A stretch of DNA of 64,000 nucleotides. It comes from Marsupella aquatica (taxonomy: Eukaryota > Plantae > Marchantiophyta). Below, in pieces: positions 33,368-64,000 of the stretch. Location of the stretch: positions 11,820,828 through 11,884,827 of the forward strand of contig OZ316894.1 of NCBI GenBank assembly GCA_973895155.1, given 5' to 3'. How positions within the stretch are numbered: position 1 is the stretch's first letter; every line of letters starts with the position of its first letter. A model generated the notes under the pieces. The model was given only the letters and a program-made list of their open reading frames with translations. It did no database searches and was not told where the DNA came from. The position numbers were made by a program, and so were the translations under genes.

Positions 33368-36300
33368 TCACACGCTCCGTAGTCCAATCGCCTGGCAGTG
33401 TCGGTGGTGAACTGATGGCGATAGTGATTTGGTGAAGAGATCCGCACAGTTGTCTGCACTTGAAATCTGCAAAATGTTGATCTCTTTTCCATGTAACTCG
33501 TGGGTGTAGAAAAACTTTGGAGCTATATGCTTCACGCGATCGCCTTTGATGAATCCTTTCGTGATCTGCTGTATACATGCTGCGTTATCCTCAAAAATGT
33601 TAGTAGGCTTCGTTAGTGGTGGTAGGCCGCATTTGGTGTTGATGTGGTTTATAAAGGATCGTAACCAAACGGCTTCACGACTAGCCTCATGTAGAGCTAA
33701 GATTTCTGAGTGATTTGATGAGGTTGCTGTTAGGGTCTGTTTCACACTTTTCCAAGAAAAAGCGGTACCCCCTATAGTAAAAACGTATCCGGTTTGGGAT
33801 TTTGCGGTATCAGTGTCAGAAAGATATCCGGCATCCGCATATCCTATGAGCTCGTGGTTTGCACCGAATGGGTAAAATAACCCTGTATCGGTGGTGCCAC
33901 GCAGATATCTAAATACGTGCTTAACTCCGTTCCAGTGTTTGGCTGTGGGAGTTGCACTATGTCTGGCTAGTAAGTTAACTGCAAATGCAATGTCTGGTCT
34001 GGTCTGATTCGCTAGGTACATTAATGCTCCTATTGCAGAAAGATACGGAGTTTCTGGTCCTAATAGTGGTTCATGTTCTTCGCGTTTGCGAAAAACATCA
34101 GTATTGTTTTCTAATGAACGTACAACCATTGGTGACGTCAATGGGTGTGCTAGGTTCATATTGAATTGTTTTAGGATCTTTTCGGTTTGTGTGGTCTGAT
34201 GGAGCATCATGCCAGTGGGTAGTATTTCTAGTTGTAAACCTAAGCAAAAATTTGTATGTCCAAGGTCTTTCATCTCAAATGTGGATTTAAGACTGGTAAT
34301 TGTATCTTCTGTAAGTTGGGGTGTCCCAAATATATTTAAGTCATCAACATAGATAGAAACGATGACATATTCATCATCCACATGTTTAATAAATAAACAT
34401 GGTGTAATGGCATCATGGGAAAAACCCATGGCAATCATTTTATCAGTAAATCTTTGATACCATACTCTGCCACTTTGTTTCAGGCCATATAATGCCTTCA
34501 ACACACGGATAGCTAGTCCGCGGCGAGTATTCTGTACGGTTGACACAGCGGTGTCGTTGTTATGAGTTACATGTGTAGATGACACATTAGGTGTAACTTG
34601 AGATAATTGTGTGATAATCTTATGTAAATATGGGATGTGCGATTTAGCGCCTTGAGCTAAAGCTCGACGACGTTGCTCCAACTCAGGAGGTGATCGCATA
34701 TATAGACAGGTGTCTAATGTGCCATATAAATATGCAGTTGCAACATCTAATTGTCGCATTTGTAGTTGGTGGAAAATGGCAAATCCGATTAAATATCGGA
34801 ATGTTGTGCTATCCATAACCGGTGAGTAAGTTTCATCGTAATGAATTCCCGGTTGTTGGGTAAATCCTTTCCCTACCAGACGTGCTTTGTAGCGTACAAC
34901 TTGGCCTTTATCATTTCTTTTGCGGACAAATGTCCATTTGTAGCCAATTAGGTGTACGTCTTGTGGTGTTGGCTCGACTGGGCCAAAAGTGTGTCTGCTG
35001 AGTAGGGAATCTAATTCTCCATTTATAGCTTTTTGCCATTCAGGCCAATTTGGTCTGTTTTGGCATTCTAAGATAGATATTGGTTCAGGTGTATCGTCAG
35101 TGATATGTGTTGCCACCATTAATGCAAAAGCATCATCTATTGAAGTAGTATTTCTATTCCACATTGCACCTGTGTGTGCGTAGTGGATAGAGATCTCTTC
35201 ATGAGATGTAGGTTCGGTATGATCGACATCAGGTGAAGGTGGTATAGATGAACCACGCCTTCTTGGTTGTTTATCTTTTGATCCCAAAGGTCTGCCTCGT
35301 TTTGCACGAGGTTGGGATGTACTAGCTGGCTCACTTGATAATTCGATGCGAGTAGATGCTCTCGCAGCTGGAATATGTGAGCGGCTAACTTGGGATGTAT
35401 CGACGAAAGCGTCGGGAAGTTCTTCCACAATCTTGTGGAGTTGTAAAATTCTTTGAACTTCTTTCTCCCCTTGATTCGTTCTAAGGTCTTGCCAAAATGG
35501 CGAGTGTCTTTCCCACTCCAGAGGTGGTTGTGGGTGTTCAGGGGTTATTAATGGTGGATAAATGTGTTCATCAAAATGACAATCTAGAAATCTGGCTTTA
35601 AAAACATCGCCAGTTGTGGGCTCCATATATCGGATTATGGATGGTGAGTCGAATCCGATGTATATCCCCAACTGTCGTTGGGGTCCCATCTTGGTTCGTT
35701 TAGGTGGAGTAATGGGGACCATTACCTGACATCCAAATGAACGAAGATGTGATAGGTTAGGTTTAATACCGTTAGCTATTTGGTATGGGCTATAGGTATT
35801 AAAAGCTGATGGGCGATATTGGATTAATTCATTCGCCTGTAATATGGCGTGTCCCCATGCTGAGACGGGGAGTTTTGACTGCATTAGTAATGGGCGTGCA
35901 ATTAACTGAAGACGTTTAATTACCGCTTCAGCTAATCCATTCTGGAAATGCACATGAGGTACAAGATATTGTACGTCTATGCCAAGTGATGTGCAAAAGT
36001 CATCAAACGTTTCGGATGTGAATTCCCCTGCATTGTCTACCCTTAGTGTCTTAATGGGGTGATCTGGGAATTGTGCTTTCACGCGCAAGATTTGCGCCAA
36101 AATACGAGGTATAACCATGTTCCTCGTTGAAAGCAGTGTCACATTTGACCATTTGGTTGATGCGTCAATTAAAACCATAAAGTAGCGGAAAGGTCCGCTT
36201 GGTGGGTTAATTGGCCCGCAGACATCAGCATGGATTATTTCCAAGAATTGGGGTATTTTAGTTGGCAATTTTGATGTCATGGGCCTTGTTATTAACTTGC

Positions 36301-38002
36301 CGCGTGAGCATGCAGTGCATGGAGTGCTCACTGGGATGTGGCGTGTATTGATTGGAATGCCACTTGAATTCTTAATGATTTTTGTTAGCATTGATTGGCC
36401 GGGGTGGCCGAGGCGTGCATGCCATAGCGCATGCAATTCGCTTGTATTGGCGTTGTTATGCAGGCATTCAATTTGTGTTATGTAAAACCCGCAGGGATAC
36501 GAGAAAAGTGTCTCTTTAATTATTTTCCCCTTAAGGGTGTTTTCAACCAAGTGAATGACCTCTTGGTCTCTGGTATCGCCCGTTTGGACATGTAGCCCAT
36601 TTGCTCGTATATCTCTAAAGCTAAGGAGATTACGAGTTGCGTTTGGGGCGAAAATGGCAGATTCTATGTGTATTTCAGTACCATGCGGGAGTCTAATAGA
36701 GGCTGGGCCGAAGCCCTCTTCTATTTGACTAGGACCATTTATAGTGGTCAGGGATCTACGTGAGGGTGTAATCTTGTGGAAAAGGTGCCTATCCCTGAGG
36801 ATAGTGTGCGTGGTCGCACTGTCGATAATACATGTGCTTGGGCTATTTAAATCTGGTGTAGTGGAGCTACTTGCCACTAAGTGTGCCTCTGGTTGGGCGG
36901 GTAGGTCTGAAAAGTCTTGGAATGGGTCGCTAGATTCCATAAACGCCCCGTGGGTTTCACGGGGTGGTGGTCTTGAGGTTTGTCTATCCTGGATGGACCG
37001 TTGATATAAATCTCTGAGGTGTTGTGGGATTCTACAGTTTCGCGCGAAGTGGTTTGTCATGCCACATTCATGGCATTTCGGTCGTTCCCGTTGTTGTCGG
37101 GGTTGTGACCGATCATTCCTACGGTTGTTGTTGTATGGTCTACCACCACCGCGTCCGCCGCGTTCACCTCGTCCTCCACGTCCGCCGCGTCCATCGCGTC
37201 CTCCACGTCCTCCGCGTCCTCCACGTCCACTAAAGGACCGTCTGAAATTGTGTTGTGGGCGTTGGTTAAAGAAACTCCCCTTGTTGGGGTTGTTTCTATG
37301 GTTGCCATTCCTACTGCGCTTAATGCCCTGCCTTGATGTGGAGGGTTCAGCGGTGTCGGTAAGATGTGTTTCACTCTGTGATCCTGAGGGCAGTGTGCCC
37401 GCAGGACGTTTTCTGGAATTAACTAAAAGGAGTTCTTGGTTTCTCTCTGTGACTAGGAGGTGGGCTATGAGCTCGGAGTATTGCCCGAACTTTATGTTTC
37501 GATACTGTGTTGATAGCCACACATTCGATGAGTGAAATGTCGACAAGGTCTTCTCTAGCAGATCCTTGTCCGTGACCGGCTCGCCACATAGTGCGAGGGT
37601 TGAGGATATTCTAAAGAGTTCGCTATTGTAGGCTGAAATTGAGGTGAAGTCCTGGACCCGCAAGTTGAGCCAGTCTTGTCTGGCTCTAGGTAATTCGACC
37701 AGTTTCTGGTGGTCGAATCGGGTCTGTAGGGCTGTCCATAGTTCCCGAGGGGTCGAAAGGTGCATGTATTGTCTCTGGAGGAATCTATGGATGTGGCGTC
37801 TCAGGAATACTAGGGCTTTCGATTCGTTGGCTTTAGTTAATGGGTCTGGTTGGGGTTCGCCAGCTAGTATAGGTTGAGCCATCCCTATAGCTGGGAGTAG
37901 GGTTAGCAAGGTTAGGTTTTCTTTTAGGTTCATGGACCATTCTAGGTAGTTGCCGCCATCTATTTCTAGGGCGGGGAAGTTGAGTTTCTCAAGGTTGGTC
38001 AT
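33368..38002 (-). CDS. Copia Gag-Pol polyprotein (Gag, Zn knuckle, protease, integrase, RT, RNase H), 1544 aa, uninterrupted
   Basis: Zn knuckle CHECGMTNHFARNC; protease CIIDSATTHT; WHARLGHP; integrase IHADVCGP, RVDNAGEF, QNGLAE; Bianca-type KRTKMGPQRQLGIYIGFDSPSIIRYMEP; RT RYKARLV, ALYGLKQSGRVW, IYVDDL; RNase H GYADAGYLSD, FEDNAACI, ADLFTKSL. Confidence 0.97.
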   Translation of the reverse strand: MTNLEKLNFPALEIDGGNYLEWSMNLKENLTLLTLLPAIGMAQPILAGEPQPDPLTKANESKALVFLRRHIHRFLQRQYMHLSTPRELWTALQTRFDHQKLVELPRARQDWLNLRVQDFTSISAYNSELFRISSTLALCGEPVTDKDLLEKTLSTFHSSNVWLSTQYRNIKFGQYSELIAHLLVTERNQELLLVNSRKRPAGTLPSGSQSETHLTDTAEPSTSRQGIKRSRNGNHRNNPNKGSFFNQRPQHNFRRSFSGRGGRGGRGGRDGRGGRGGRGERGGRGGGRPYNNNRRNDRSQPRQQRERPKCHECGMTNHFARNCRIPQHLRDLYQRSIQDRQTSRPPPRETHGAFMESSDPFQDFSDLPAQPEAHLVASSSTTPDLNSPSTCIIDSATTHTILRDRHLFHKITPSRRSLTTINGPSQIEEGFGPASIRLPHGTEIHIESAIFAPNATRNLLSFRDIRANGLHVQTGDTRDQEVIHLVENTLKGKIIKETLFSYPCGFYITQIECLHNNANTSELHALWHARLGHPGQSMLTKIIKNSSGIPINTRHIPVSTPCTACSRGKLITRPMTSKLPTKIPQFLEIIHADVCGPINPPSGPFRYFMVLIDASTKWSNVTLLSTRNMVIPRILAQILRVKAQFPDHPIKTLRVDNAGEFTSETFDDFCTSLGIDVQYLVPHVHFQNGLAEAVIKRLQLIARPLLMQSKLPVSAWGHAILQANELIQYRPSAFNTYSPYQIANGIKPNLSHLRSFGCQVMVPITPPKRTKMGPQRQLGIYIGFDSPSIIRYMEPTTGDVFKARFLDCHFDEHIYPPLITPEHPQPPLEWERHSPFWQDLRTNQGEKEVQRILQLHKIVEELPDAFVDTSQVSRSHIPAARASTRIELSSEPASTSQPRAKRGRPLGSKDKQPRRRGSSIPPSPDVDHTEPTSHEEISIHYAHTGAMWNRNTTSIDDAFALMVATHITDDTPEPISILECQNRPNWPEWQKAINGELDSLLSRHTFGPVEPTPQDVHLIGYKWTFVRKRNDKGQVVRYKARLVGKGFTQQPGIHYDETYSPVMDSTTFRYLIGFAIFHQLQMRQLDVATAYLYGTLDTCLYMRSPPELEQRRRALAQGAKSHIPYLHKIITQLSQVTPNVSSTHVTHNNDTAVSTVQNTRRGLAIRVLKALYGLKQSGRVWYQRFTDKMIAMGFSHDAITPCLFIKHVDDEYVIVSIYVDDLNIFGTPQLTEDTITSLKSTFEMKDLGHTNFCLGLQLEILPTGMMLHQTTQTEKILKQFNMNLAHPLTSPMVVRSLENNTDVFRKREEHEPLLGPETPYLSAIGALMYLANQTRPDIAFAVNLLARHSATPTAKHWNGVKHVFRYLRGTTDTGLFYPFGANHELIGYADAGYLSDTDTAKSQTGYVFTIGGTAFSWKSVKQTLTATSSNHSEILALHEASREAVWLRSFINHINTKCGLPPLTKPTNIFEDNAACIQQITKGFIKGDRVKHIAPKFFYTHELHGKEINILQISSADNCADLFTKSLSPSVHHRHCQAIGLRSV

Positions 38003-39587
38003 CTCTAAGGTCCTGGCGTGCAGCGGTGGTGTGCGTGTTTATATATAATATATATAGTCAAAAGACAATGCACATTTGCCGCATGCAATGGTGGAGAAAG
38101 GGTTGAGGATATCAATCTAGGTCACTGGCGAGTAAAGCAGGAATGTTTGGGTTTTTGCAGAATTTAGGGTTTGCACTTATTAAGTTGGTTTTCTTTGTGA
38201 ATGTGTAACTGCAAGGTTTCCTTTGTATTATCTTTTTTCTGTGTTAAGCTGTGCAGTAATGAGGTTTTGCAGTTTGTGCAGTTATTGGTGGTAATTTACT
38301 CGTGACTTGGTTAAGTGCACTTTCTGCTTTGTAAATGAAGTCTCTTTGATGAACGTTGCAATTAAAGAGGGTTTTGCGGTTATGTGCGGTTATGGAGCGT
38401 GCACTTAGCGGATTTCGATCGGGCTCGACGTTTTGTCGATGAAATGTGGCGCAATTGTCCCCTCTTGGTGGCCCCCTTTTCACTTCTCTGGTTCATTTCC
38501 TCCTTCAATGTCGTTCTCGGGCACTCTTCTCTGGTGCGCCATCATTTTTCGAAATCTCTCAGGTCGTTTTGCCGCTACTGCTTGCGAGTGTCTGTATGGG
38601 CAACGTTCGGAATGGTTCGCTTCACGTAACCTCAGCAAAAACTTACGGCCTTACCATGCGTCCATGTTTGCTTCCGTTTTTGAAAGTTGCTGTGGCCTTA
38701 TGATTTCTCTTCCGGGCTGATCCACACGTTTTCACTTCCTGTGTCCTTACGAGTTTATTTTCTTCCTTCTCCTTTCCGCTTCGTCTCGGAGTGGCAGTCT
38801 CTTCGCCGTAGTCCTGTGAAAGTTTCTTAGCTTGCTTCTGTATGCTTCGATCCTTCCTTCGGTCGATCTCACCTAATCTCTATTTCTTGCCTTAATTTTT
38901 CGATCCTGTGCGCTGGCCAAGATCGATTGTCTGCTGCGCCTTTGCTTATCCGATTACACTCGCCTCTCTGCTTTTCTTGTGGATTTTGATCTTCCGCTGC
39001 TAGCGGCCCTCCGTTCGGGTGCCTCCTTAATTTTTCTGTCCCTTCTCTTGGTTCTCATCGATTCTCCTCGATGTCTCTATCCTCGATGCCTCGGTTCTTC
39101 AATCTTCGATCCTCCGATCCTCGGTATCATTTCGCTTTTTAGTCTGGTGTCCTTATCATTCTCTTTCTGCTTTGGCTTCATTGATCCTTGGTGGTTGGGG
39201 TAATCGGACCCGTGCTGCGTCTTCCTCTCTCGATTGCTGCCAGCGTTCGGTCCGACGTCTCTTTTGGCCCTCTCTATTCTCTTTCGAGAATTGAATATGC
39301 GTGACTTTGGGCCTGGCTCTGTGTTCTACCGATGCCCTTACGAATCTCCTTGCGTTCTCTCTCGCTCACTCATTCTCTCATCTCCTTCCTGCATACGGCC
39401 TTCTGCCTTGTGATGTCCTTATGAATTGACGATTTTTCCTAAGGGAAAAGAATGAGACCCATGGTCCATTGCTGTCGAAAGCTGCACGCTTCCTTCCGAT
39501 CTCTTATTTGTCTTACTCAATCATTACTCAATTCGCCATGGCTCTTCGAAAAAAAATCTTAGCCTCCTTGCTCAGCCTCGGTGAGTC

Positions 39588-42502: not shown

Positions 42503-43140
42503 ACATTTTTCAGCCGTGTCCATCTGAACCTCAACTCGGACTGCCGTGAGAGTGCCTGCGGATCATATTTGAGACCCACGTAAATCCTGTCAGGAGAAGA
42601 GGTTACCGGTGTGTAACCATTTCTACAGGGGCCTGCTATAATCATAATTTGGTGTCCTGAAAAGTTGAGCCGGTAGCCTCTTTTCGGGCAGGAGTTACGT
42701 ACGCTAATGCAGGGCAGGGCTGGGGTTATAGGCTGTAACCTGCTCCCGGAATATTCAAAGAAGCTTCCCGGCTGTCGTCGGTCAGTTTCTTTTCATATTC
42801 CGGAAGCAGGGTTACAGCCTAGTAACCTTGCGCCCAGACCTGCATTACCCTATACAGTTACAGCCTAGTAACCCTGCGCCCAGACCTGCATTACCCTATA
42901 CATTTTTGCCTGCATTACCCTATACATTTTTCAGCCGTGTCCGTCTAAACCTCAACTCGGACCGTCTGAACCTCAACTCGGGCGTCCGTGAGAGTGGCTG
43001 CCGATCATATTTGAGACCCCGTTCCGTATTTAAGTGCCCTCGGATCATATTTGACACCCCCTTCCCTATTTGAGGCATCTTTTGACAGCCCGTAATCCCA
43101 TCCAAGCCAAGCCAAGCCAAGTCAAGCCAAGCCAAGCCAC
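42503..43140. repeat. Local repeat cluster: ~75-bp dispersed duplication, short duplications and (CAAGC)n
   Basis: acatttttcagccgtgtcc.tct.aacctcaactcggac at ~42503 and ~42924. gttacagcctagtaacc.tgcgcccagacctgcattaccctataca twice (42811-42902). caagc repeats at ~43103-43138. Confidence 0.75.
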
Positions 43141-43358: not shown

Positions 43359-44578
43359 GGCCTGCCTCTGCACGTTGTTTCAATTGAGTGAATAACGAAT
43401 CGCTGGTGTCTGGTCAGCGCGGGGGTCAGCGTGTTCATGAGCTCCAGCTCTCCAGACATTAGAGTGTCGTTCGTCCTGCTTCCCTCACAGCGCCTGCATT
43501 AACTCCCTTCTGGCCTAGCTTGCACCCACTCAGTCACTCACTATCCATCCTACTACAGTAGCTCCATCCGCCTCTTGATCGATCTCATCGAGCCAGCGAG
43601 CACGCAATGCGCTAGCTAGCTGGAGAGCGAGAGCGAGAGCTAGCTACGTCAACCTCGGAGACTACGGGAGACTACGACTGCGACCAGACTCCGAGTCAAG
43701 GCCGTTCAAACTGAAAGCAGGTAAAAAGGACCGAGATTGCATTCGAAAATGTGGATCGCGTATGGCGACGATCAGGAGCAATGCGAGAGTCACGAATTGC
43801 CCAGAGGTTTAGAGGTGCGCAGCGAGAGATTTCGGGGCCAGATCCAAGAGGAGGAGGATACTGTGAGCGTATTAGCAGCATCGGCTCCAAATGTCGCACT
43901 GTTCCGGCAGTCTGCGGGGAGGAGCAGCGGCGAGAGATATGGTACGCGGGAGCGCTCGTCCGGAAGAATGTTGTGCACAGCAAAGTCAACAACAACATTA
44001 ACAATACCGAGACAAAGACCAATCCGAGGGGGTGCAATACGACGTTCTTTGACTCGATCACCAAGCTTTTCGCGTCTAAAAGGCTTTCGCGGTTAAACTT
44101 ACTGTAGCATTCGACACTGGCGACAGAGTGCAGATTGCGGGACGTGCTGTTGTGTTGTAAGAAATTGGATTCGGACACTCTCATCGGTCTGAAGATTTGG
44201 GTGCACCTCTCACATAATCAGGCATGCACAGGCGCCGAACCCAATACTGCTGCGCCAACCGACTGACTGTAGCTAGCTAGCGTAATACTAGGAAACCAAG
44301 CTCCAATCAAATCTATCATGGTATTGTGTTGAAATTTGTTCAATTAAAGGACCATGAGACATTTTATTGAAGCTCCCCTAACCACGGACCCCAGAATTCG
44401 TAGTCTTGGCGGGAGTCTGCGTCCCCGGCAGATTAATTACCTGCACTCCCCAAATGTAGCTCCGTAGTGAACCAAACAATTGCAAACCCTTCGATCATAA
44501 TCTACGACGGGGCAGTGTTTACACTGAGCATATGCCTCTCTGATCAGTCAAGATCGGGGGCCCGAGCTTGGAGATAGA

Positions 44579-45919
44579 ATGTGCTATTCAAATGTGCTCC
44601 CTGGGCGCGGAGACAGCTTCCAGCAGAGCTATGACTTGAACTCGAAAAACGATTACAGACACATCAAGCACGAGGTAATGGACTGTCTGGTGACTACTCG
44701 ATCGTCCTATGAGATCACCACGGAGGGAGTGGAATTCGTCCTCAAGCAAAATAACTACGAGATGGACACGAGCCGCTTAGATCTTCTGTTCCGGACCAAG
44801 CAGTCGTCGATTGCCTCCGTGCGAGAGAAGCAGGTGTTCGTGATGGCACGTAGCAGCGCGGGGTATATCGTGGTGGCTTGTCGAGGGACGTTCTCGCTTT
44901 CGGATATCATTGCCGACGTCAAGCTGGCCAAGCTACCCGTGCCATTCGCCCAAGGGAGAGCTCAGATTGGGTTCGTGGAGCGAGCTATGGATATGCCTCT
45001 GGAGCTCTTTGTTTTGCTTCTCAGAGCACGTGAGAAGCTTATCTTCACAGGCCATTCCTTGGGAGGAGCTGTCACGGCTCTGACAGCCCTGAGGGTGCTC
45101 GAGGCCCTGGGGTCTGTGCCAGGACATTCCTTCATGCAAGAGCAAGTTCAGTGCATCACATTTGCCACAGCTCCGTTTGCGAATTTGGAGCTCGCAACAT
45201 ATGTGAACTCCAAGTACAAGAGTATATTCCATAACATCGTGTCCAAGCACGACGTGGTACCTCGGGCTCACAGTCTTGTCCCTCAATTCTTCTTCCCTGC
45301 GGCGAAGTGGGTGGTAGACAGGATGCACGCTAGGTGGGAGATACGGATGTGCAAGACTATGCTCGAGACCATGACTCAGATGTCCGTGGACAAGGCCGTG
45401 ACAAAGCTAGAGCAGAGGTTGCCATCGCTCTGGCCAGTGACATGGCTTTACAAATTCATTAAGGAATGCGCTGCGCATGATGAAGAGGCTCTCTTCTACA
45501 ACCATGTCGGCTATGTGCTCATGCTCGACCCTGACACCAAGGATCCGGAGTCCACTATAAGTATGGAGGATGACACCGAAAATTTGGGTTTGAACTTTTG
45601 CTTGGAAGACAAGAGCGTTTTGGAGATCTGCTACGAGCATGGATTGGGGAACTACTATTCGTGTCTTGTAAGAGGCTTGAGCGCCACCAAGGAAACCTCT
45701 GTAGCTTTTACCAGTCCATTTCAAAGACTAAATCCTGAGAATCTTCTCATGAATTATTACGCAGAGCTCATCAATGTCAAAGCCCGAGCAGCAGAAGCTA
45801 AGCGTATCTCTGTTAGAGACGGCCTTTCCACACAGCAGATTCTGAGGAATCCATCTCGGGCATGCCTCACTTATTTCAACCAATTTCTTATCAGAATTAC
45901 CGGCAACGACTTCCCGTGA
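44579..45919 (+). CDS. Class-3 lipase (alpha/beta hydrolase), 446 aa, uninterrupted ORF
   Basis: IVVACRGTFSLSDIIAD; nucleophile elbow IFTGHSLGGA; CITF; catalytic Asp in NIVSKHDVVP; candidate His in EHGLGNY. The start codon is uncertain and upstream exons are possible. Confidence 0.85.
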   Translation: MCYSNVLPGRGDSFQQSYDLNSKNDYRHIKHEVMDCLVTTRSSYEITTEGVEFVLKQNNYEMDTSRLDLLFRTKQSSIASVREKQVFVMARSSAGYIVVACRGTFSLSDIIADVKLAKLPVPFAQGRAQIGFVERAMDMPLELFVLLLRAREKLIFTGHSLGGAVTALTALRVLEALGSVPGHSFMQEQVQCITFATAPFANLELATYVNSKYKSIFHNIVSKHDVVPRAHSLVPQFFFPAAKWVVDRMHARWEIRMCKTMLETMTQMSVDKAVTKLEQRLPSLWPVTWLYKFIKECAAHDEEALFYNHVGYVLMLDPDTKDPESTISMEDDTENLGLNFCLEDKSVLEICYEHGLGNYYSCLVRGLSATKETSVAFTSPFQRLNPENLLMNYYAELINVKARAAEAKRISVRDGLSTQQILRNPSRACLTYFNQFLIRITGNDFP

Positions 45920-53432: not shown

Positions 53433-56162
53433 TGTCCAAGTGGACATTGGAATGCGACAAACCATGAAAATCTTGGGATATTTTCAACATCATTTTCACA
53501 ATTACCAAAAACAACAAATCTATACTTAATTACAAACATAAAATTTACGGTCTTTGATCTGAGTTTGTGCAAACTCAAAATCTTAAGTAGAATGCCACTA
53601 TCCATTGTAGGTGTGCATCTAAGTCCACTAAATCTCTAACTACAATGCAACTCAACTAATCTAAGGCTTCTCTAACCTCCTCTCCACTTCTAGAAGATCC
53701 CCTTCCTATCCCCTTCCAATCCCCTTCCAATCCTTATCAATCCCATTCCAATCTCCCTTGCTCCCTCTCCCATCCTCCACTCGCTCCCCCTTCAATCCTT
53801 AGGTCTGCTCGATTGAGATCTAGCTCTCAAGCTCAATTTTTCACAAATTATCCCTGATCCTTTGTGGCTATCTCCCCTAATTGGAATCTGTCTCATTTAA
53901 TCAGAGTCTACCACAGCTAATTCAAGCAGCAGTCAATCACAGTAGAAGCTCATTCAATAACCAAATCTGAGAAATCAAAGTCCAACACTCAGGTGAAATC
54001 CAGCAATCAAAGCATCAACATCAAACCAGGAATTCAAAATTTCAGCTTCAGGATTTTGAAGGCGACAGCAGAGATTAGCAGTCGTTCCCAGACCATAAAT
54101 TAGGCCTGACCTCAATCAGCAGCTGATGACAGCACCTTGATGCGACTTGAGCTTAAGTGAGGGCCAATAGCCCTCTCCAGGCCGCAGCCTCCTTTGCCAT
54201 AGCCAATTGGCTACCCTCGCCCTTTGTAGGTCATTGAGCTTGCAACACAGTCTTTGCCCTTTGTATTTTGTCACAACCAGTTTTGGACTTCATGAATTCA
54301 TGAAGCTTTTGGTTTCTCAGTTTCCCAGGTGGTAGCCCCTTCATGAATTCATGAAAGAGAATAAGGTATCTTAGGGAGAGAATCTCCAGAATAGCCAAAA
54401 GAAAGACTTCAAAAGTGAAAGAAAAGGGGATAAAGACAAACCACTCAATCTCAAGAAATGCAAAAAAATGGTGAAATAAAAGCAAAAAGTGCTCCAAATG
54501 CCAATATTCCAAAAAGCATATGGAAACAGTAGGTCAACAAGACAAACTCTCCAATCATGAGTCATGGAAGTACATATCTTGGTGGGCAAAAACATATGGG
54601 TTTTTACTGGTGGGCAAAAACATATGGGTTTTTAATGCCAATGTTTATCCTCATGAAACGTGGGAATGCAAACCTAAAAATGATTTATTTCTCCAAGTAA
54701 ACTGGATTGCGTAGTCCAAACAATATTGTGAGATTAATAATTGAGCAATCTAGTAAAGGGAGGTATGGGGAAGGGAAAAGGCCCAAAGAAGCCCTAAGTT
54801 GCCCAACAAGCCAAAAAGTCGAAGGACTAAGATACCACCTAGTAGCCAAGAAGACTAATTAATAAAGTGTTGTGTCATAAAAAACTTTTGGAAATATAAT
54901 TTTTTCAACTTTTTCCTTGACTTGTTCATCTATGTCATGAAAGGATTGGCTTAATTATTGAAAAATGATTTAAGCATTTCTTATTCATTTAAATTAGAGA
55001 AAGGACCAATTAAGTACAAATAAGCGTCCTCTATTCATGAAAACATGTTATTTCATTTGTTTCAAGTTAAAGGATTTTTGCTCTTTTGTGTGTTTTGTCT
55101 ACATTAAGTTCTTCTCACTCATTTGAGAGCACTAGCCTCCCCGGGCGTTAAGTTCTATCCCATGTGGTTGAGACTAGTGTTAATTTGGGTGTCCGACTCA
55201 AGGGTCTTCAAGATAGTGGACAGTTGAGAAAGCGGACTCATGAATTCATGAAGACAGATTGTAACAAGTTTCTAAAAACACTAAGTCCTGTCTCAAAACC
55301 AGATTTTTGTGCATTTTGGAAAGGTCAAGCGTTGCAACAAGCACCAAGGGGAGAGAGTGAATATGGTCGTCTGACATCTCTCAAATTCCAGGAAGGTGTA
55401 AGAGCACTGACACAAGCGGGGACACAAGAAGACCTACTGAGGCTGCAAATAATTCCAGCAAGGAAAGGATCATCACAAGAAGGTCACCCGGGCACACTTG
55501 CATCATTTGGCTGAGATTGGAAGCCAATCAATATCAAGAAATTAACTTGAAGGGGAAGAATAAGAATTTGGAAGAGGTCCCCAAGAAGAGGTTGGGGGAG
55601 CCCAGTTGGGTCAATATGTTTGTGAAATTCAGATGTTGCCTAACAAATCAAACTCAGGCACGTTGAGAGCCAGGTTGAGAGTAAAAGAGGAGCCATTGAG
55701 TGATTTGATTTGGATCAAAATGGGTACATCTGGAAGCGTAGGTGCTGAATTTGTGGAGATATCATCTTCCATTGAAAAGTCTCCCTCAAGGAGTGAAGGG
55801 GCGCATGTTGGAGAGTCAAAAAGAGATCATAATTTATGAATTTGAATTTTTCCCAAGTCTAATGAATTATGGAGGTAATTTGATTGTTTGTTAAAAATAC
55901 AAATCATGTTTTGGTAAAAATTGCTAAAATGGCATAGTAAAATTATAGGTAGTAATTTTATCAAAAGTAAGTTGAGATCATTTTGTAATTAGGAGATGGT
56001 GAAAAAAGTGTCATTTTAATACTTTCAGTTTGTTTTATAATTTTGTCAAAAAACAGGTAGTATTTTTGGCCACTTTTTTGCCATTTTCTTTGTTTCTGCA
56101 ATTTTTTTACGAGAGTGCTTAGATTTTGGGCTTGTTACTCACCCTTTAAGGCTTCTTGTTCA
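53433..56162. mobile_element. ~2.7-kb non-coding block with TG...CA ends, possible solo or chimeric LTR
   Basis: Starts TGTCCAAG and ends CTTGTTCA (6/8 inverted match). The flanking coding sequences on both sides stop making sense at these points. No matching 5-bp TSD for these ends. Confidence 0.35.
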
Positions 56163-58484
56163 TGTAGTGGGTGATGTGGTGTTCACCAAAGGCTTCAATA
56201 TAAAGTCTACCCCAATTCTCAAATTTTCCTTTGAATGCCAACCTTTGTGAATCAGTCAAAGTCAGCCCAGTCAGGTAAGGTTGCAACTCCTCATAAGCTC
56301 TCCACATGCGCATTCGAGAAAGCTTTCCTTCTGGCCCGTTATGATGATCAGCTGTACATAAGTCCATCCAAAAAATTTCGTTTTGGGAATATGTACTCTT
56401 TTGGAATAATCTTGTGACATGAGCTCCATTCATGCTTGGTCTATTGGGGACACTACCAGTTGCTCCAGAAAGGTTTGGATCCTTGAATATTCTCACATTA
56501 CCTCCATGAACCCCAGCTGAGGACAAAGATTCTTCCATTTTCTCTATAGCTTTTGCTTGAGAAGGTTTGTTTTGCATGTTCCAAACATACATGAAATGCA
56601 GATGCAAAAATGTTTCCACAATTCGAACATTAGCATGCAAGGTGCAAATATGTACACGCTCCAATGGTATTGGGAGTATTGGGTCAAAATGTGTGTCTCC
56701 TGATGTTCCATGACTTGGTTCTGCTGGAAAAGATGTGGAGAACAATCCACCCTTCCATGAAGGTTGTTGACGTTCCTTACCGGCTCTTCTTGCAGCCATA
56801 TCACTCCCTAGTGCTTTTTTGCTTGACTTTTCTTGGAGACAATAGATGCAAGAGTGTTTAGCATTTGCACCATGTTGCAACCCATACATGCATTTTATTG
56901 TTTTCATATCTGCTGTCAAATGCCACTCCACTTTGTATTCTCCCATTCCTGGAACCTGTAATAATTTCCCTGCTTCCTGTGCTTGAATCACACTTGGAAA
57001 TGATGTTGTTCAAAATATGAATTTCAATTGCGCATGTGACTCCTTTGCCACCTCAAAGCATGCCACTGGCCAAATGTCACGATCTGATTGCACTGATCGA
57101 GAAGTATCGAGGGTCATCTTTCTGGATTGTCATATCCAAAGCCCTGTTCATAAGAGTAATTGAGACCCTTTCTAACTTTTGGTCTTTGACAATCTGTGCC
57201 TCATCCAATTTGAGGACAAATACTAGGGGACTTTCACCAATCTCCTCTTCAGTGACATTGTAAAAGCGAACCATGTTTTGTTGTACCACTTCAAGTTCAA
57301 CAAATAGTGAATTCTTGTCACTCAACATAATTCTCTTGGGCTTTGTTCCATCAGTGGTTTTGGACTTCTTTGCCTTTGGGGCATCTGGAAGCTCCATATG
57401 CAAGCTTTTGTACTCACCAATGAAGTGAACAAGGTTTGCATTATATTCAACCCGCAACTTAGACACTTGAGAGGAATTAGGAATAGCAGCAAGTTTCAAC
57501 CGTGGATGCACAAACTTGAAGCCATTTTTCAAAGTTTTACGGATAGCAGAAAAACCTTTCTGAGAAACACCAGTTTTATCACACACTGCCAACATACTAG
57601 TTGGCTGGATATGATCTCCAACTTCAGTCAAGATACTGTTTGTGGCCTCCACAATTGTTGTGGTCATGCTAGGTTGTTGCACCATGTACTCCTTCTCCTC
57701 TTTTGTCAACATCATTCTTTGCAAGTAACATAGCATTCTGTCTTTGTGCTTCAACATCTCCACAAACACAATGTTTCCCCCCACATATTGCATTATCCAT
57801 TTGAACCTCCTTTGAAGTCTTTGCTTGTAGTAGAGTTCGGACTTGACGTCTTAATCTTTTTGCATGCCCACCTGTTTGACTCAGATCTGACAAGTCTTTT
57901 CTTTTGCGAACATGCCCTTCTCGCAACAATTTATCATATTTTGTTCTCAAAGAAACAAGCTCTTTCTCTTTGTTTTGCAATGATGTTGTACATGCCAAAA
58001 CTGATTGCTGTAGGCTTGCTATTTGATCATGGTCAGATTGCAATGACTGTATTTTTTGTAGCAACTGAAGGTTCTCCACCCTCAGCTCAAGACTCACTTG
58101 CATAAAAAAAGCCCTGCCACTTTCTATGTTTTTGATGTTTGCCTCGTATTGCTTAGTAATAGTCATATTTGTTTTTGATAGGCTATGGGCATATCTATAG
58201 AATCCATTTTCTCCTTCACAAATATAAACTACAAGCTCCTTCCCCTCCTTCAAGGTTGTAAAGGGTGGTGGTGCATTTGTTCTTGGATCTTTAGGGTATA
58301 TAGCCCCATTTATCCACAGGTCTATGTTAGTAGCCCCCTCAACCCTTTTTTGGGGGAAATCAAATTTCTGTGTTTGCAAGTCAACATTGACCCCTCTTTT
58401 GATGAGGGGCGCATATTTTGGATCCACTGCAAACCGTATCTCATACGACTTGCCCCATTTGTTTGTAATGTCTTGCAAGGCCAT
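56146..58484 (-). pseudogene. RAG1/Transib-like DDE transposase, frameshifted and C-terminally truncated
   Basis: Joining ORFs 58484-57669, 57793-57077 and 56991-56146 (frameshifts at ~57720-57780 and ~57097, stop at 57010-57012) gives, in RAG1 order: RKRKDLSDLSQTGGHAKRLRR; IQPTSMLAVCDKTGVSQKGFSAIRKTLK; FVLKLDEAQ; SVQSDRDIWPVACFEVAKESHAQL; LTADMKTIKCMYGLQHGANAKHSCIYC; ICTLHANVRI; FGEHHITHYM. Confidence 0.8.
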
Positions 58485-59571
58485 GACTCTGCATTTTAAG
58501 AGATGGTCATAATGGGAAAAAAATCAATCTCATTTATTGATACAACTTAGAGTTCACGCTTTATGCTTAGAGCCTTTATTTAATTTACTAATTTGAAAGG
58601 AATTCTATCCAACGTTGCTAAAACCACATATCCCCGTGGCACAGCCTACTTACATATATGTACTAATGAGGGACATATATTCCTAGTTACACACTTTACT
58701 TCCATTTACTAATCAGGGCACTCACTGATTGAATGGACTCCACTTGTGAAAATAACACTTGAATTCCTTGGCACTCCTCTTGTATGTTCGCCATCACCGT
58801 CTGTCACCAACCCATATTGTCTCTCAATCCACGTACTTGGAGACGCATACATATCAGGTATAAACATCCAAGTCAAGAATGTGTATCTAAAGTATATAAC
58901 TATTGTTTCCAGAAACAAATAGCAGAATTGATTCCTTCAGCGTTACCGCCCTCATTCTCAATGAGGTTTGTGTCCATCATGATTGCTCGCTGTTACCCGA
59001 TTGTTCTTCTTCTTCTCACCTTTGGGTTTACCAAGATTGGCCTCAAAGCTGAATCTTAGCCATAAGGTTCAAACCTGAATTCTTAGACATAATTTTAAGC
59101 TGAAATCTTAGCAATAAGAAGCACACAACGTACAAGATAGCTTTCCGTTAGCGTCTCTCACAGGGAGCTCTCGTTGGATGTCCTCGTCAAAAGGAGTTTT
59201 GCTATGAATTTTGTATGTACATATATAGAGTACAAGAGTTTTGGTTTGAATCCGCATACCAAGGAGTTCTTCTCATGGAAAAGCTCGAGAAATCCTAGTC
59301 CTTGCTTGTAGTAAGGAGGTTGAGAATTGCACAGAGGGAAGAGTCGATATAAAGAGTGACATTGTGCACAAAGAGTTTGCTTGGCCTGTGACAGATGAGG
59401 TATTCTATTGTGCGAGCAAACAGGAGTTTTGCTAGCGAGGACAGCAGGCTAGCGAGGCAAGTTTGCGCGTAATTTGAGGGTAGTTAAGGCGCATTCCCAA
59501 GTAAGATTGTCAATATATACTGTGAAACAGTTAAGGAAAACGAAAATGCAGATACTTAAATATTCACAAAC

Positions 59572-62500
59572 TCAAAAATCGAGATCTTCACTACACTGAA
59601 TTGAATGAAAAGGCATCATCACTGTCAACAAAACCAGGTCAAAAAACCTTTCACAATCCATCTTTAATAAAACTTTGGTATGACAAATATCTTCTGGAAT
59701 GAGATTGCATCTGAAATTGACCATGAGTCCTTGAGAATCCTCTGATTCCAAATCATCTGAGGAATTACTAGGATCGCTACTGGACTCCCTATCAGTCTCC
59801 TCAGCCGAACCGTCAACATACTGTGCTACAGTCCCAGCCTCATCATCTATGAACTGAGGGCAGTAAAGGGCTTTCCGAACACCCCTCACTGACCGCAGAC
59901 CTTTCCCCTCCCAAGTCAAAACGACGGGCGCTTCATCAACCTCCTTTGCAGTCTTTTCAGCATAGCATGGAAGCGCAAATCCCTTGTCAGGGGTCACAAG
60001 AAAATGATCCTCGATTTCTTTCCGAAGACGGAATCTCTCCTCCGAAAACCAATCCGAACGCCTATCACTGAAGAAATCACCAGAATCGGATCAATACTAA
60101 ACATCCGAAAATTCTACAAACAAAAGAAAAACACCAAATAGGGAGTTCTACATCAAAGGCCAAGTGCTTTACTCCAGGTCGAATTCATCCTTCTCGTCTG
60201 AAGGTCCTCCTTGATCATCTCCTGGGATGGTGAACTCATCATCAGACCCTTCATCTTTGGGATCATCGTTCTTCGGGTCTGCGGCCCCTTTCAACTTCTG
60301 GGCATGTCTATCCAACACATTTGCCAAAGTTCTTTGTGCACACAGATGAAGAATGTCTTGATCTTCAACACCCACAACAAATCTCCCAGCGTATTCCCCA
60401 GCGGCAAAAGCACTTCCATCTCCAACAGTCCAGTCAATGACAATGTCCTTTGGCAAAGTAAGGATCTCCATTACGGCTTGCATGAACCCAACTGACAATC
60501 TATTGGAACCTGCGAAAGCCGCCCTGGGACTGGGATCAGTTTTTGGGTAGCAAACACTCAACATCGATTTATGGCGGGCATCCTCCGAGGAAGTCATTGG
60601 AACATATCCTGTATGTTTCGGGACTTTTGCCGAGAATTCCACCTTGCAGAAGACATCCATAATGAGAGTAACCACCTGAATTGAAAACGATAATACGTAA
60701 GAAATGGGAACTTTTGGTTAGCGAGCTCGCTAGCAAAAATTGCACAAAAAATATGGAGGATATCTTACCTCGATGTCCATATCTGCCTGATACAAAGGAG
60801 ATGAAAGCAAAACCGAATACTGCCGGACATGTTTAAATTTGTTCTTCTGTTCGACTGCAGAAAAAATTTGCCTCATATGGTTATAGTCAGAGCTGTGAAG
60901 AACTGCGACATAACCATCGTCGGCAAGCATCGGACGCATGACTCCAAAGAAATAATATGGTAATTTCTCACTCCAAACATTCCACTTCGGGACCTCCCGG
61001 TCTGTGACGCTTGTTCGATGACCCGTGGGAAGGAATATGAAACCCAAGTGAGCACCAATTCCAGCGTAATTTTTTCCGTTGATCATCACGGCGTTTGGGT
61101 GTTCGCTCGATTTGCTCATTCCAGACAACCACTGATCCGCATCGCCCATCCAGGGAGGTCTTACTTTCCTCTGGCTAATTGAGTTTGCAGTTTCCGTGAG
61201 ATTGCTCTTTGCCAAGAAATGCCTCTCACCATCCTTCTTAAGACCACACATTCGTGCTACTCCTTGCGCGACGCATGCTTCCTCCTCATCCGAGTCGGAG
61301 AGAATTTGGACATTGCGCTTCCTCTTTAAACGCTTGATTGAACCCAGGTCCACAGCAGATTTTGTTGTGACCTCAACATCAGGAGACTTGGGTTCTTCTC
61401 CATCATCCGCCCCACTCTTCAAACTGCCAGAGGCTGCAGCCTTTCTCTTCTCTGAAAAACATGTTAATGTCAGACAGGTGACTGAGACAAAATTACTCCG
61501 AATGAGGTATGAAAAAAAGAGGAGAAAAAGACTTACTTTGCTTCCCAGACAAGACTGATCCATCTTTGGACGTGTCCTTCACCGGCACTTTCCGAGGTCT
61601 CCTCGATCTACTCCGGTCCACAATGGTAGCTACACCAAGAACAGCTTTCTCCATTGCATCACATCCGCCAGCCTCGGCTTCTGCAGGAGCTAATTTGGAC
61701 TCTGTAATGTACGACTCTGGTATCAAGCCTCGATTTATCATATGAAATGCTGCCTTCTCTGCTGTGTCAAATGTCATTGCCCATTTGTCTGATTCTAAAT
61801 ACCATGGACAGTGAAGGACTTCCCACTCACTCATCTTCCTTGGAGCCTCCACTCCCTCACATGGGTACATCGAGTACTCTCCATATTTAACAAAGGTTGG
61901 ATCCTCTTTCACTCCTGCTATCCAAGGCGAGAAGCAAGCAGGATAGGACCACCAATATGTTTTGTCAGCAACTTCTCTATCCACAAAAAAATGATACGTA
62001 TATCTCTTCGCCCTCCTCCAAAAAAGTGAGATGTCAATCTTCTCACCCAACTTTGGTGGCCAAATCTGTTTGAAAAAACGAGATTTCACTCTCGTTTGGA
62101 AATCTTCAAAGTCCTCCTCTATGTCAAGGATCAGCGATGGCTTTGTCTTCTCAGACGAAGTAAGGATCCTTGCATCTGGAACAGTTGGGATCAACTCTGA
62201 AATAATCTCAGACATGAGCGAAGAACAAATTGACTCAACCTGCTCCCAAACAGCCCATCAGTGAAGCCAAAGTTTTGTTTCGCTGTCCGAGAATTGACCA
62301 GGGTGGAAGTACTTCTTGCGAAGCTCAGGTCTGCATTGTGCCTCGAGGAGTACACATCTGAGCTGGGGAGTCAACGATGAGACACCCGTAAATAGCCTCG
62401 CACGATCGAGACCACATGACACATTACCCCTTCCTTTATCGTCTGTTCGTTGGGCCTCCTTCCTCTCATGTTCGCAGTAGTTGTGCATCTCAACACACTT

Positions 62501-63693
62501 CTGGAAAAAGTCACCAAACTCAGGATTTAGGAGAGGTCCAATCTTTGGCACCTTCACATTCCAATCTGCCAGTTGCTCCTTCATCATGTCTTTGACTGCC
62601 ATGTCTTGCGCAGCTTTTGAAAGAGGTTCTCCTTGCGCTTCTTTCAACTGAAACTTCTTCTTCAAATCTTCCGTCTGCGCTGCAATATTAGCAGTAGACA
62701 GAATGTACGTGCAGGCATCGAGTGTCATGTTCTTCGAATACCAAGCCGGTTTCCTGATATTTGCCATCTTCTGCTGGAAAAGTTTGTAGTTGTCTGCATC
62801 GATGATATCTTTGTATACAGAAAGGTCATTACTGAGAACCTTGTGGACTCTCTCTGCTTCAAGGACCCAAGAATTCTCAACGTGACATTGAGTCAACCTG
62901 AGCAAAAGAAACAGGTCAGCGAGATCGCTAACAAGAGGAAATGAAAGAATTTTATATACAATTCACAGCTTGAAGGAAAAGAAACAAACCTATTCAGTGC
63001 ATGCATTGCCGACTCAATCTGCACGAATGAGTTCTTGTCACCCTTGAAAATTCGACAAACAACTCGAGGATGATATTTGACATCATGGGGATTCTCGTCC
63101 GCAAGCTGCATCCATGAGTACAGACGATGATTTCCATCGAAAACACAGAACATTTTGTCTTTCAAAATTTTGAAAGCTTCGTGAGAATCACATTCCCTCT
63201 CGAATTCTTCATTCTGAAGAATCCACATGTCATCCCACGACTCCCGAATCACATCCTCGCACATCTGGACAAGGCCATCTTCGCCGGTCATTTGGACATA
63301 AAATCGAGGCGCATCTTCGATGTATCCCTGCGTCCGGAATTCATTCTTGAGTGTCTCGATCGCAGTCGAGTTAGTTTGTAAGGACCGAACGATCTGCATG
63401 TTTCGCATTCTACAAAGGGGAATCCTCGGAGGAGCGAGCGGGAATCCAAATTTGTCATTTCCAAAAGGGAAAAGATGGCGATTGATGACAACAGAATAGG
63501 GTTCTGAAGCTCCAAGTTGAAACGTAGGATTCACAACATCTACTTGGTTCACCATCTTGGGCCTCCTCGGTGTTTTCAATCCCGCCTGGAGCGCCTTCTT
63601 GTTCACTGTAGACCTGGTCTCCCTTCGGCTTGACTCGACTGACTTGAACGATCCTATTGATGACAAGCTCTCGGGTGAAGACAATGGCTCCAT
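59572..63693 (-). pseudogene. Spliced gene for a ParB/Srx-like domain fused to a beta-class N4C/N6A DNA methyltransferase-like domain, with one premature stop
   Basis: Exons 63693-62990, 62897-61537, 61451-60769 and 60675-60169 (or 60675-60173 plus 60067-59572) join in frame through GT-AG introns of 92, 85, 93 and 105 nt. In-frame TGA at 62258-62260. ParB-like IPLCRM...IETLKNEFRTQGY...CVFDGNHRLYSW. MTase-like MRPMLADDGYVAVLH and ILTLPKDIVIDWTVGDGSAFAAGEYAGRFVVGVE. Confidence 0.78.
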
Positions 63694-64000
63694 CAGGGGG
63701 TCCGTGAAGTGATAAGGGTATCAACAGGTCAAGGTCGAGGGCAACACGCTTTGCGAACATAAAAACACCCGAGAATCGATCTTCCAATCAAAGACATAAT
63801 CGTACCCTCGTCTGTTGCTTTCACCTGAATGCTGCGCCCGGTCGTGAAAAGAGATACAAATATTCTGTACGACTCTTCTCGCAATCATTTTTCAGACAAC
63901 GTCAGGTATACATGTACTTCCGGAAATACGAACCACCGAACTCACGACTGAAAGAAAAGTATCTAATGACAATGAGATAGGTGTCCAGTACTATACCGTA

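Follow-up and report, generated by a model that had tools for sequence, protein, structure and literature searches.

A predicted intron-containing gene joining a ParB/Srx-type fold to a degenerate methyltransferase fold on a repeat of many copies, probably a DNA transposon, in the liverwort Marsupella aquatica

Here we report the analysis of a gene encoded in a 64,000-nucleotide stretch of the genome of the liverwort Marsupella aquatica (assembly GCA_973895155.1, contig OZ316894.1, positions 11,820,828 to 11,884,827 of the forward strand), referred to below as the window. The gene lies within a high-copy repeat, likely a DNA transposon, and its predicted product combines an N-terminal domain of the ParB/Srx type with a C-terminal domain of the beta-class amino-methyltransferase fold (Table 1). 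Both domains, as well as the joining of four open reading frames (ORFs) into one gene, had been proposed from the letters alone in an earlier description (hereafter, the sequence-only reading), which implied an active enzyme making N4-methylcytosine (4mC) or N6-methyladenine (6mA).

Table 1. Coordinates of the gene, its motifs and the surrounding repeat within the window
Feature	Position	Strand	Remarks
Repeat	59397..64000	.	high-copy repeat carrying the gene, likely a DNA transposon; other end beyond the window
Candidate element terminus	59397..59440	+	begins GAGG on the + strand; contig ends
Gene		-	four exons joined in frame by three GT..AG introns; 1084 codons
Exon 1	62990..63693	-	start codon, disordered N-terminus, ParB/Srx-fold domain at about residues 70-234 (predicted)
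DGNHR	63124..63138	-	putative nucleotide-binding motif, unchanged in 20 of 20 aligned sequences
Intron 1	62898..62989	-	phase 2; position conserved throughout the family
Palindrome TAGCGAnnTCGCT	62917..62930	.	in intron 1, overlapping a branch-point-like sequence
Exon 2	61537..62897	-	conserved central region, no Pfam match
Premature TGA	62258..62260	-	private to the window copy; Arg codon in other copies
Intron 2	61452..61536	-	GT..AG, 85 nucleotides
Exon 3	60769..61451	-	basic linker with KRLKRKR, catalytic half of the methyltransferase fold
FLPT	61024..61035	-	degenerate motif IV, at the place of DPPY/SPPY/DLPF
Intron 3	60676..60768	-	93 nucleotides; position conserved
Palindrome TAGCGAnnTCGCT	60719..60732	.	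in intron 3
Exon 4	60173..60675	-	half of the methyltransferase fold that binds S-adenosylmethionine (SAM), acidic tail
DWTVGDG	60415..60435	-	motif I, in exon 4
VVGVED	60361..60378	-	in exon 4
Predicted intron 4	60068..60172	-	105 nucleotides, GT..AG; donor overlaps the TAA of the sequence-only reading
Predicted exon 5	59728..60067	-	LPxYAE and F[IV]DDEA motifs, acidic tail

The three introns of the sequence-only reading were reproduced at the coordinates it had given. Each is bounded by GT and AG, their lengths are 92, 85 and 93 nucleotides, and their removal yields 1084 codons with a single internal TGA at codon 448; all the motifs quoted earlier are found in the joined protein. The junctions are predictions backed by homology, as they recur in homologues instead of being absent from all of them. 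At junction 1, the same Asn codon followed by a phase-2 GT is present in 22 of the 24 distinct homologous loci, and one related locus, L002, picks up again at the start of exon 2, after AG, matching exon 2 at 39% across 266 columns. Junction 3 is spanned by 13 homologues, ten of which lie within -21 to +8 residues of the spliced length and three of which are unspliced ORFs with 24 to 33 additional residues there; in the spliced models of Calypogeia fissa and Riccia sorocarpa, which cross this junction, the 31 codons of the intron are missing. Junction 2, which falls in a low-complexity region, is the least well tested of the three; only P0003 and P0010, both Calypogeia models, cross it. The gene escapes routine annotation because its separate ORFs give a single Pfam match, N6_N4_Mtase at E 0.11 in exon 4; the central region of about 400 residues has no Pfam match. 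The KRLKRKR stretch of exon 3 is of a type that we take to resemble a nuclear localization signal.

Copies free of the internal stop, which the sequence-only reading had suggested seeking, were found: position 62260 is the Arg-codon base in essentially all of the covering depth in four of four public runs (contigs over 62100-62420). The TGA is therefore a lesion of the window copy alone, and the reading frame of L002 is open across the same site. Most simply, the stop would have arisen by a C-to-T change at a CpG; read-through of the stop and RNA editing were dropped as unnecessary, given the sense codon in other copies. The 3' end previously placed at 60169 is probably wrong, since a GT donor overlaps the TAA and can join a fifth exon, the 105-nucleotide predicted intron 4 connecting the next ORF in frame. 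The other copies have a stop at 59728-59730, directly after the acidic tail, in four of four runs, where the window copy has Gly, and their indels in the 3' region are either frame-preserving or, as at 60154 and 60156, located inside predicted intron 4. LPxYAE and F[IV]DDEA recur in the C-terminal tails of 3 of the 132 fetched proteins, all of them Riccia models (pairwise E 9e-4 and 0.015); the tail is not present in the Calypogeia models. We consider the fifth exon, and with it a family protein of about 1196 residues, probable.

The ParB/Srx assignment of the N-terminus, made earlier from a signature in the letters, is supported by structure prediction. Exon 1 of the window was modelled at a predicted local distance difference test score (pLDDT) of 85.9, and among the Foldseek matches listed for this model all 34 rows were of the ParB/Srx type or unannotated (ParB, sulfiredoxin, KorB, Noc, PadC, SbnI, SerK and two unannotated proteins). 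A wide structure search (VIA) returned 14 chains at Z>=2, with KorB at the top (Z 7.1, root-mean-square deviation (rmsd) 2.8 Å, 94 residues) and with PadC and Srx, so that the ranked matches are nearly all ParB/Srx. No ParB chain was matched by a ParB profile among PDB sequences, exon 1 matched nothing among viral contigs, and one Atlas cluster, taken as a lead only, has ParB_N in 11% of its members. The window protein has in common with ParB, KorB, Noc, PadC, sulfiredoxin, SspE and DpdB the predicted fold and a DGxxR-type motif; it differs from the superfamily by a helical insert of about 40 residues, and clamp behaviour here is putative. Its DGNHR parallels the nucleotide motif DGQQR/GxxRxxA of ParB-fold nucleoside triphosphatases (NTPases); in several systems of DNA modification, these proteins are described as clamps or translocases on DNA that are gated by nucleotide (PMC10164549). 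In a separate observation, the cluster at Atlas rank 2 for exon 1 is fungal, with DUF3723, a recurrent gene of Starship elements, in 31% of its members; DUF3723 may hold a ParB-like domain.

The C-terminal domain is a methyltransferase by fold, and it is not a member of the canonical enzymes. A search with this region gave 91 matches among 1.84 billion representatives, three of which (P0059, P0078 and P0081) were rejected as PKD/Calx repeats. A profile of the family matched nine PDB sequences, all beta-class amino-methyltransferases (best E 2e-7), while single-sequence PDB searches gave chance matches only, plus DpnA at E 0.15. PF01555 was detected at E 1.6e-3 or better in 8 of the 16 scanned homologues, in one of them above the gathering cut-off. 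The AlphaFold model of the Calypogeia homologue P0004 (pLDDT 84.6) matched CcrM at E 2e-12 (Z 18.6, rmsd 3.4 Å, 210 residues) and N4CMT at Z 16.6. These results support the permuted beta-class order, with motif IV ahead of motif I, that the sequence-only reading had recognized, and both of its proposed folds, ParB and Rossmann methyltransferase, are thus predicted.

The active site is another matter. The clade is defined by [DNSH]PP[YFW], in which the first residue binds the target amine and the last stacks on the base (PMC4738411; PMC10406627). The stretch FIFLPTG, quoted earlier from the catalytic side, is indeed motif IV, as the profile alignment pairs its FLPT with DLPF, which is motif IV in a phage methyltransferase, but both the D/N/S and the aromatic residue are replaced. 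Position 4 is never aromatic (Y, F or W) in the 49 homologues that extend over the site, and position 1 is D in nine and S in five of them; the Asp of the SAM-binding motif I is kept in 42 of 45 homologues, the window protein having DWTVGDG ... GVE. In a tree of 40 rows and 100 columns, from which the long-branch row P0084 was left out and which is unrooted because it has no outgroup, the window falls within a branch of 30 rows without the Asp of motif IV, split with support of 96/91 from ten rows, nine of which have it. A phage search with P0066 gave weak methyltransferase matches only (E 0.002-0.007), and therefore no donor lineage can be named. The Riccia sorocarpa UniRef entries of P0072, P0075, P0089 and P0114 are automatically named 'Trimethylguanosine synthase', likely a mis-annotation.

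Both domains occur in one gene in the window, in L002, in P0010 and in P0086. Nineteen distinct loci have room for 3 kb downstream, and in eight of these a methyltransferase match was found there, all on the same strand and none on the opposite one. Word-based searches for long homologues of exon 1 plus exon 2 found none, which is weak evidence. P0086, a Logan protein from a cluster of three, joins residues 1-105 of the window protein to residues 960-999 and is an internally deleted derivative of the gene.

The gene is carried by a repeat. Between 153 and 4216 contigs per run match the region, at identities from below 90 to above 99%, and the summed contig depth, which is not a copy number, is still at flank level at 59230 and exceeds the flank by factors of about 30, 90 and 700 in three runs between about 59250-59400 and the end of the window. 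Three X5 contigs, whose flanks are unlike one another (agreement 0.51), end at 59397, as would be expected where an element stops, which makes 59397 a likely end; in one X1 contig and one X3 contig, a 44-nucleotide side ends at 59440. The candidate terminus has no partner repeat within the window, and neither a terminal inverted repeat pair nor a target-site duplication is shown within it, the other end of the element lying outside. The related loci, which are metagenome contigs, adjoin plant genes and form dispersed families with 4-8 kb in common, many of them decayed; the named homologues are from liverworts, with at least ten dispersed models in Riccia sorocarpa and five models in Calypogeia fissa. 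Differences between copies (33 in the exons, 13 of which come from the best-supported 40 of 635 rows and 20 from 21 rows, the stop row set aside) are synonymous in 23 cases, where 21-27% would be expected (P ~4e-7), and the family is therefore under purifying selection in the predicted frames. Because the far end, a target-site duplication and a transposase were not found, we only infer that the repeat is likely a DNA transposon. We regard the gene as probable cargo of a transposon and not as a host enzyme of the kind represented by Marchantia DN4MT1 or rotifer N4CMT, and with a degenerate motif IV on a multi-copy repeat the active enzyme implied by the sequence-only reading is not supported.

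A decayed transposase-like gene of three frame-shifted ORFs lies at 56146-58523 on the reverse strand, near single-copy depth, with 4-base indels at 57094 and 57712 in other runs; its Atlas leads point to RAG1/Transposase_21/Plavaka-type clusters, with recognition just under the threshold. As a candidate for the element's transposase this remnant was rejected, and it is probably a separate, older element, because of its single-copy depth, its position outside the candidate end and the failure of tblastn to match it in any of 72 related loci. Positions 55500-56350 form another segment of moderate repetition, at about ten times the flank depth in three runs. Five distinct related loci (L018, L023, L040, L045 and L056) have a region in common, located downstream of the ParB gene at a distance of several kb; the read-through of this region in L023 contains the stretch WTTMAYHIYDPVYCKVM, which we take to be MULE-transposase-like and for which Pfam gave no match.

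We favour, tentatively and at somewhat less than even confidence, the explanation that the product is a self-binding accessory factor of the multi-copy repeat, itself likely a DNA transposon, and not a methylase. In view of the loss of the usual catalytic residues, the protein would likely hold on to the DNA of its own transposon and protect it instead of methylating it. The ParB domain would bind a nucleoside triphosphate through DGNHR, dimerize and load on the element's own DNA, and the pseudo-methyltransferase domain would bind SAM and would keep target bases in its grip or flip them, with no methyl transfer. The element, coated in this way, would be shielded from methylation-based silencing by the host, or helped to assemble for transposition, and the protein would be supplied in trans by intact copies elsewhere. 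A more specific version, which we regard as unlikely when taken as a whole, is that a nucleotide-gated ParB sliding clamp of bacterial derivation, fused to a dead methyltransferase on land-plant transposons, loads at the element's palindromes, spreads, and reads or occludes methylatable bases; this would amount to a eukaryotic parS/ParB-like system of self-recognition and anti-silencing, in which one branch has turned from writer to reader. The candidate binding site would be the 13-nucleotide palindrome TAGCGAnnTCGCT, which occurs within the window only in introns 1 and 3 (0.44 matches expected; a count as high in 1 of 100 shuffles), although the pattern was picked after being seen, the branch point makes up half of it, and all 72 related loci lack it.

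A number of results weigh against the accessory-factor explanation. The shielding role is drawn by analogy, and the C-to-T change at a CpG would mean that the window copy was methylated and hence that any shielding was incomplete. No transposase has been tied to the element, whose far end is outside the window; none was detected by Pfam in 18, 6 and 78 segments of related loci, the last being part of the 175 ORFs in those loci. On the side of the ParB domain, no Foldseek match of the exon 1 model had E under 0.001, each being individually weak, the best fold score of Z 7.1 is middling, below 8, and no Pfam ParB match was obtained in 20 members. The methyltransferase fold was modelled on P0004, which is 37% identical to the window protein, not on the window protein itself. 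As to their linkage, the methyltransferase match lay downstream in only 8 of the 19 loci with room, and no single full-length database protein with both domains was retrieved.

The protein might instead be an active, non-canonical amino-methyltransferase, directed to the element by the ParB domain and writing 6mA or 4mC as a private mark, a role that has been proposed for an Ectocarpus protein (PMC12477816). Such an activity would agree with the complete beta-class fold, the retained motif I and the nearly invariant Pro of motif IV, with a conserved Trp-containing loop after motif IV that might stand in for the stacking aromatic residue, and with the Asp kept in related lineages (DLPS, DMPT, DIPT, DPPT, DYPE, DIPE). 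We nevertheless hold it to be rather unlikely, as the stacking aromatic residue is found in no member and the branch of the window has F, A, Y or C where a side chain hydrogen-bonds the target amine (PMC10406627; PMC4738411). Improbable in our view is a part in the mechanics of transposition unconnected with silencing, such as pairing or looping of the ends or retention of excised DNA, with the methyltransferase fold serving as a DNA-binding or dimerizing module. ParB-fold NTPases acting as clamps or translocases in DNA-modification systems (PMC10164549), the dimeric state of beta-class methyltransferases (PMC10406627) and the ESM Atlas lead to DUF3723, present in 31% of one cluster and recurrent in fungal Starship elements, all point that way; a transposase partner was not identified, however, and the conserved SAM-site residues would be superfluous for a pure scaffold.

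We put still less weight on the gene having no role for the element, whether as passive cargo or as a domesticated host gene family that duplication has amplified. The decay of many related loci, and the fact that the window shows neither a pair of terminal inverted repeats nor a duplicated target site, are consistent with such an origin, but it fits poorly with purifying selection on the dispersed copies, with several unlike flanks meeting at one base, with dispersed families that have 4-8 kb in common, and with the same domain pair being carried by an algal transposon (PMC12477816).

The window also contains several other features. An uninterrupted polyprotein of 1556 residues (gag, integrase and reverse transcriptase) at 33368-38038 on the reverse strand represents an apparently recent copia-type long terminal repeat retrotransposon. 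The observed-to-expected CpG ratio is 0.72 in the ParB-methyltransferase gene, 0.82 in this copia element and 0.25 in the transposase-like remnant, and CpG depletion is uninformative. A class 3 lipase gene, a single ORF with short repeats ahead of it, lies at 44528-45919 on the forward strand, preceded by an inverted repeat with 32-nucleotide arms at 42739-42810. A large host gene spans 3453-30834 on the forward strand, with two low-complexity exons of 2087 and 1644 residues and internal repeats; no Pfam match was obtained in its four scanned ORFs, and it presumably resembles the tail of a SPLAYED/BRM-type remodeller.

This analysis extends to liverwort-type land plants a ParB and methyltransferase cargo noted on algal transposons, of which the papers found report no functional test. 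Selection maintains the gene across dispersed copies, and the split of the family into Asp-retaining and Asp-lacking branches makes the choice between a writer and a pseudo-enzyme directly testable. PF01555-like matches in bryophytes should not automatically be regarded as host 4mC enzymes. If a clamp that shields its own element is confirmed, it would represent a second independent route of self-protection by plant transposons, beside VANC, and a ParB-type clamp acting on eukaryotic chromatin. VANC is an element-encoded protein that acts on its own element. The VANC anti-silencing proteins of VANDAL transposons are mentioned in 10.1101/2025.02.11.637652; their likeness to the window protein is a functional analogy only, with no sequence or fold relation shown.

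Among known systems, the Ectocarpus transposon Sola1-1_Ec32 encodes an accessory protein of 1104 residues with ParB-like and N4C/N6A methyltransferase domains, and proteins like it are cited from transposons of green and red algae (PMC12477816). The Ectocarpus protein has the same domain pair as the window protein, is of near size (1104 against 1084-1196 residues) and is likewise located on a multi-copy repeat; the two are likened by description, not by sequence homology, and the window protein differs in its land-plant host and blunted motif IV, as does the candidate end, which begins with GAGG in place of the AACCG-CGGTT termini of Sola1-1_Ec32. For the green algae, the study cited is Iyer 2011. 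ParB-like and amino-methyltransferase domains are also transposon cargo in the accessory genes of red-algal (Bostrychia) Plavaka elements, where PAG2 combines PF01555 with SET and PAG3 combines ParB with a 2-oxoglutarate (2OG) oxygenase, and they pass from one transposon superfamily to another; a further likeness is that the ParB gene has inverted repeats nearby (10.1101/2025.02.11.637652). PAG2 and PAG3 each carry one of the two domains, joined to another partner, whereas the window gene fuses the two. CcrM, M1.HpyAVI, M.MboIIA and M.PvuII of the PF01555 family have the same permuted fold with motif IV before motif I; the window protein differs from them by lacking (D/N/S)PP(Y/F/W), by an identity of 10-18%, by its ParB fusion and by its introns. 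Like the window gene, Marchantia MpDN4MT1a/b and bdelloid N4CMT represent a bacterial-type beta-class fold in a eukaryote, but they are described as low-copy host enzymes with an intact SPPY and with either no extra domain or a chromodomain (10.1101/2021.02.12.428880; PMC8885841), in contrast to the multi-copy, ParB-fused window gene without SPPY. The literature searched, with most subscription journals outside its scope, yielded no report of the blunted motif or of this family in any bryophyte. Within that literature, a ParB and methyltransferase transposon cargo is already known from algae, and what is new here is a land-plant branch with a blunted active site.

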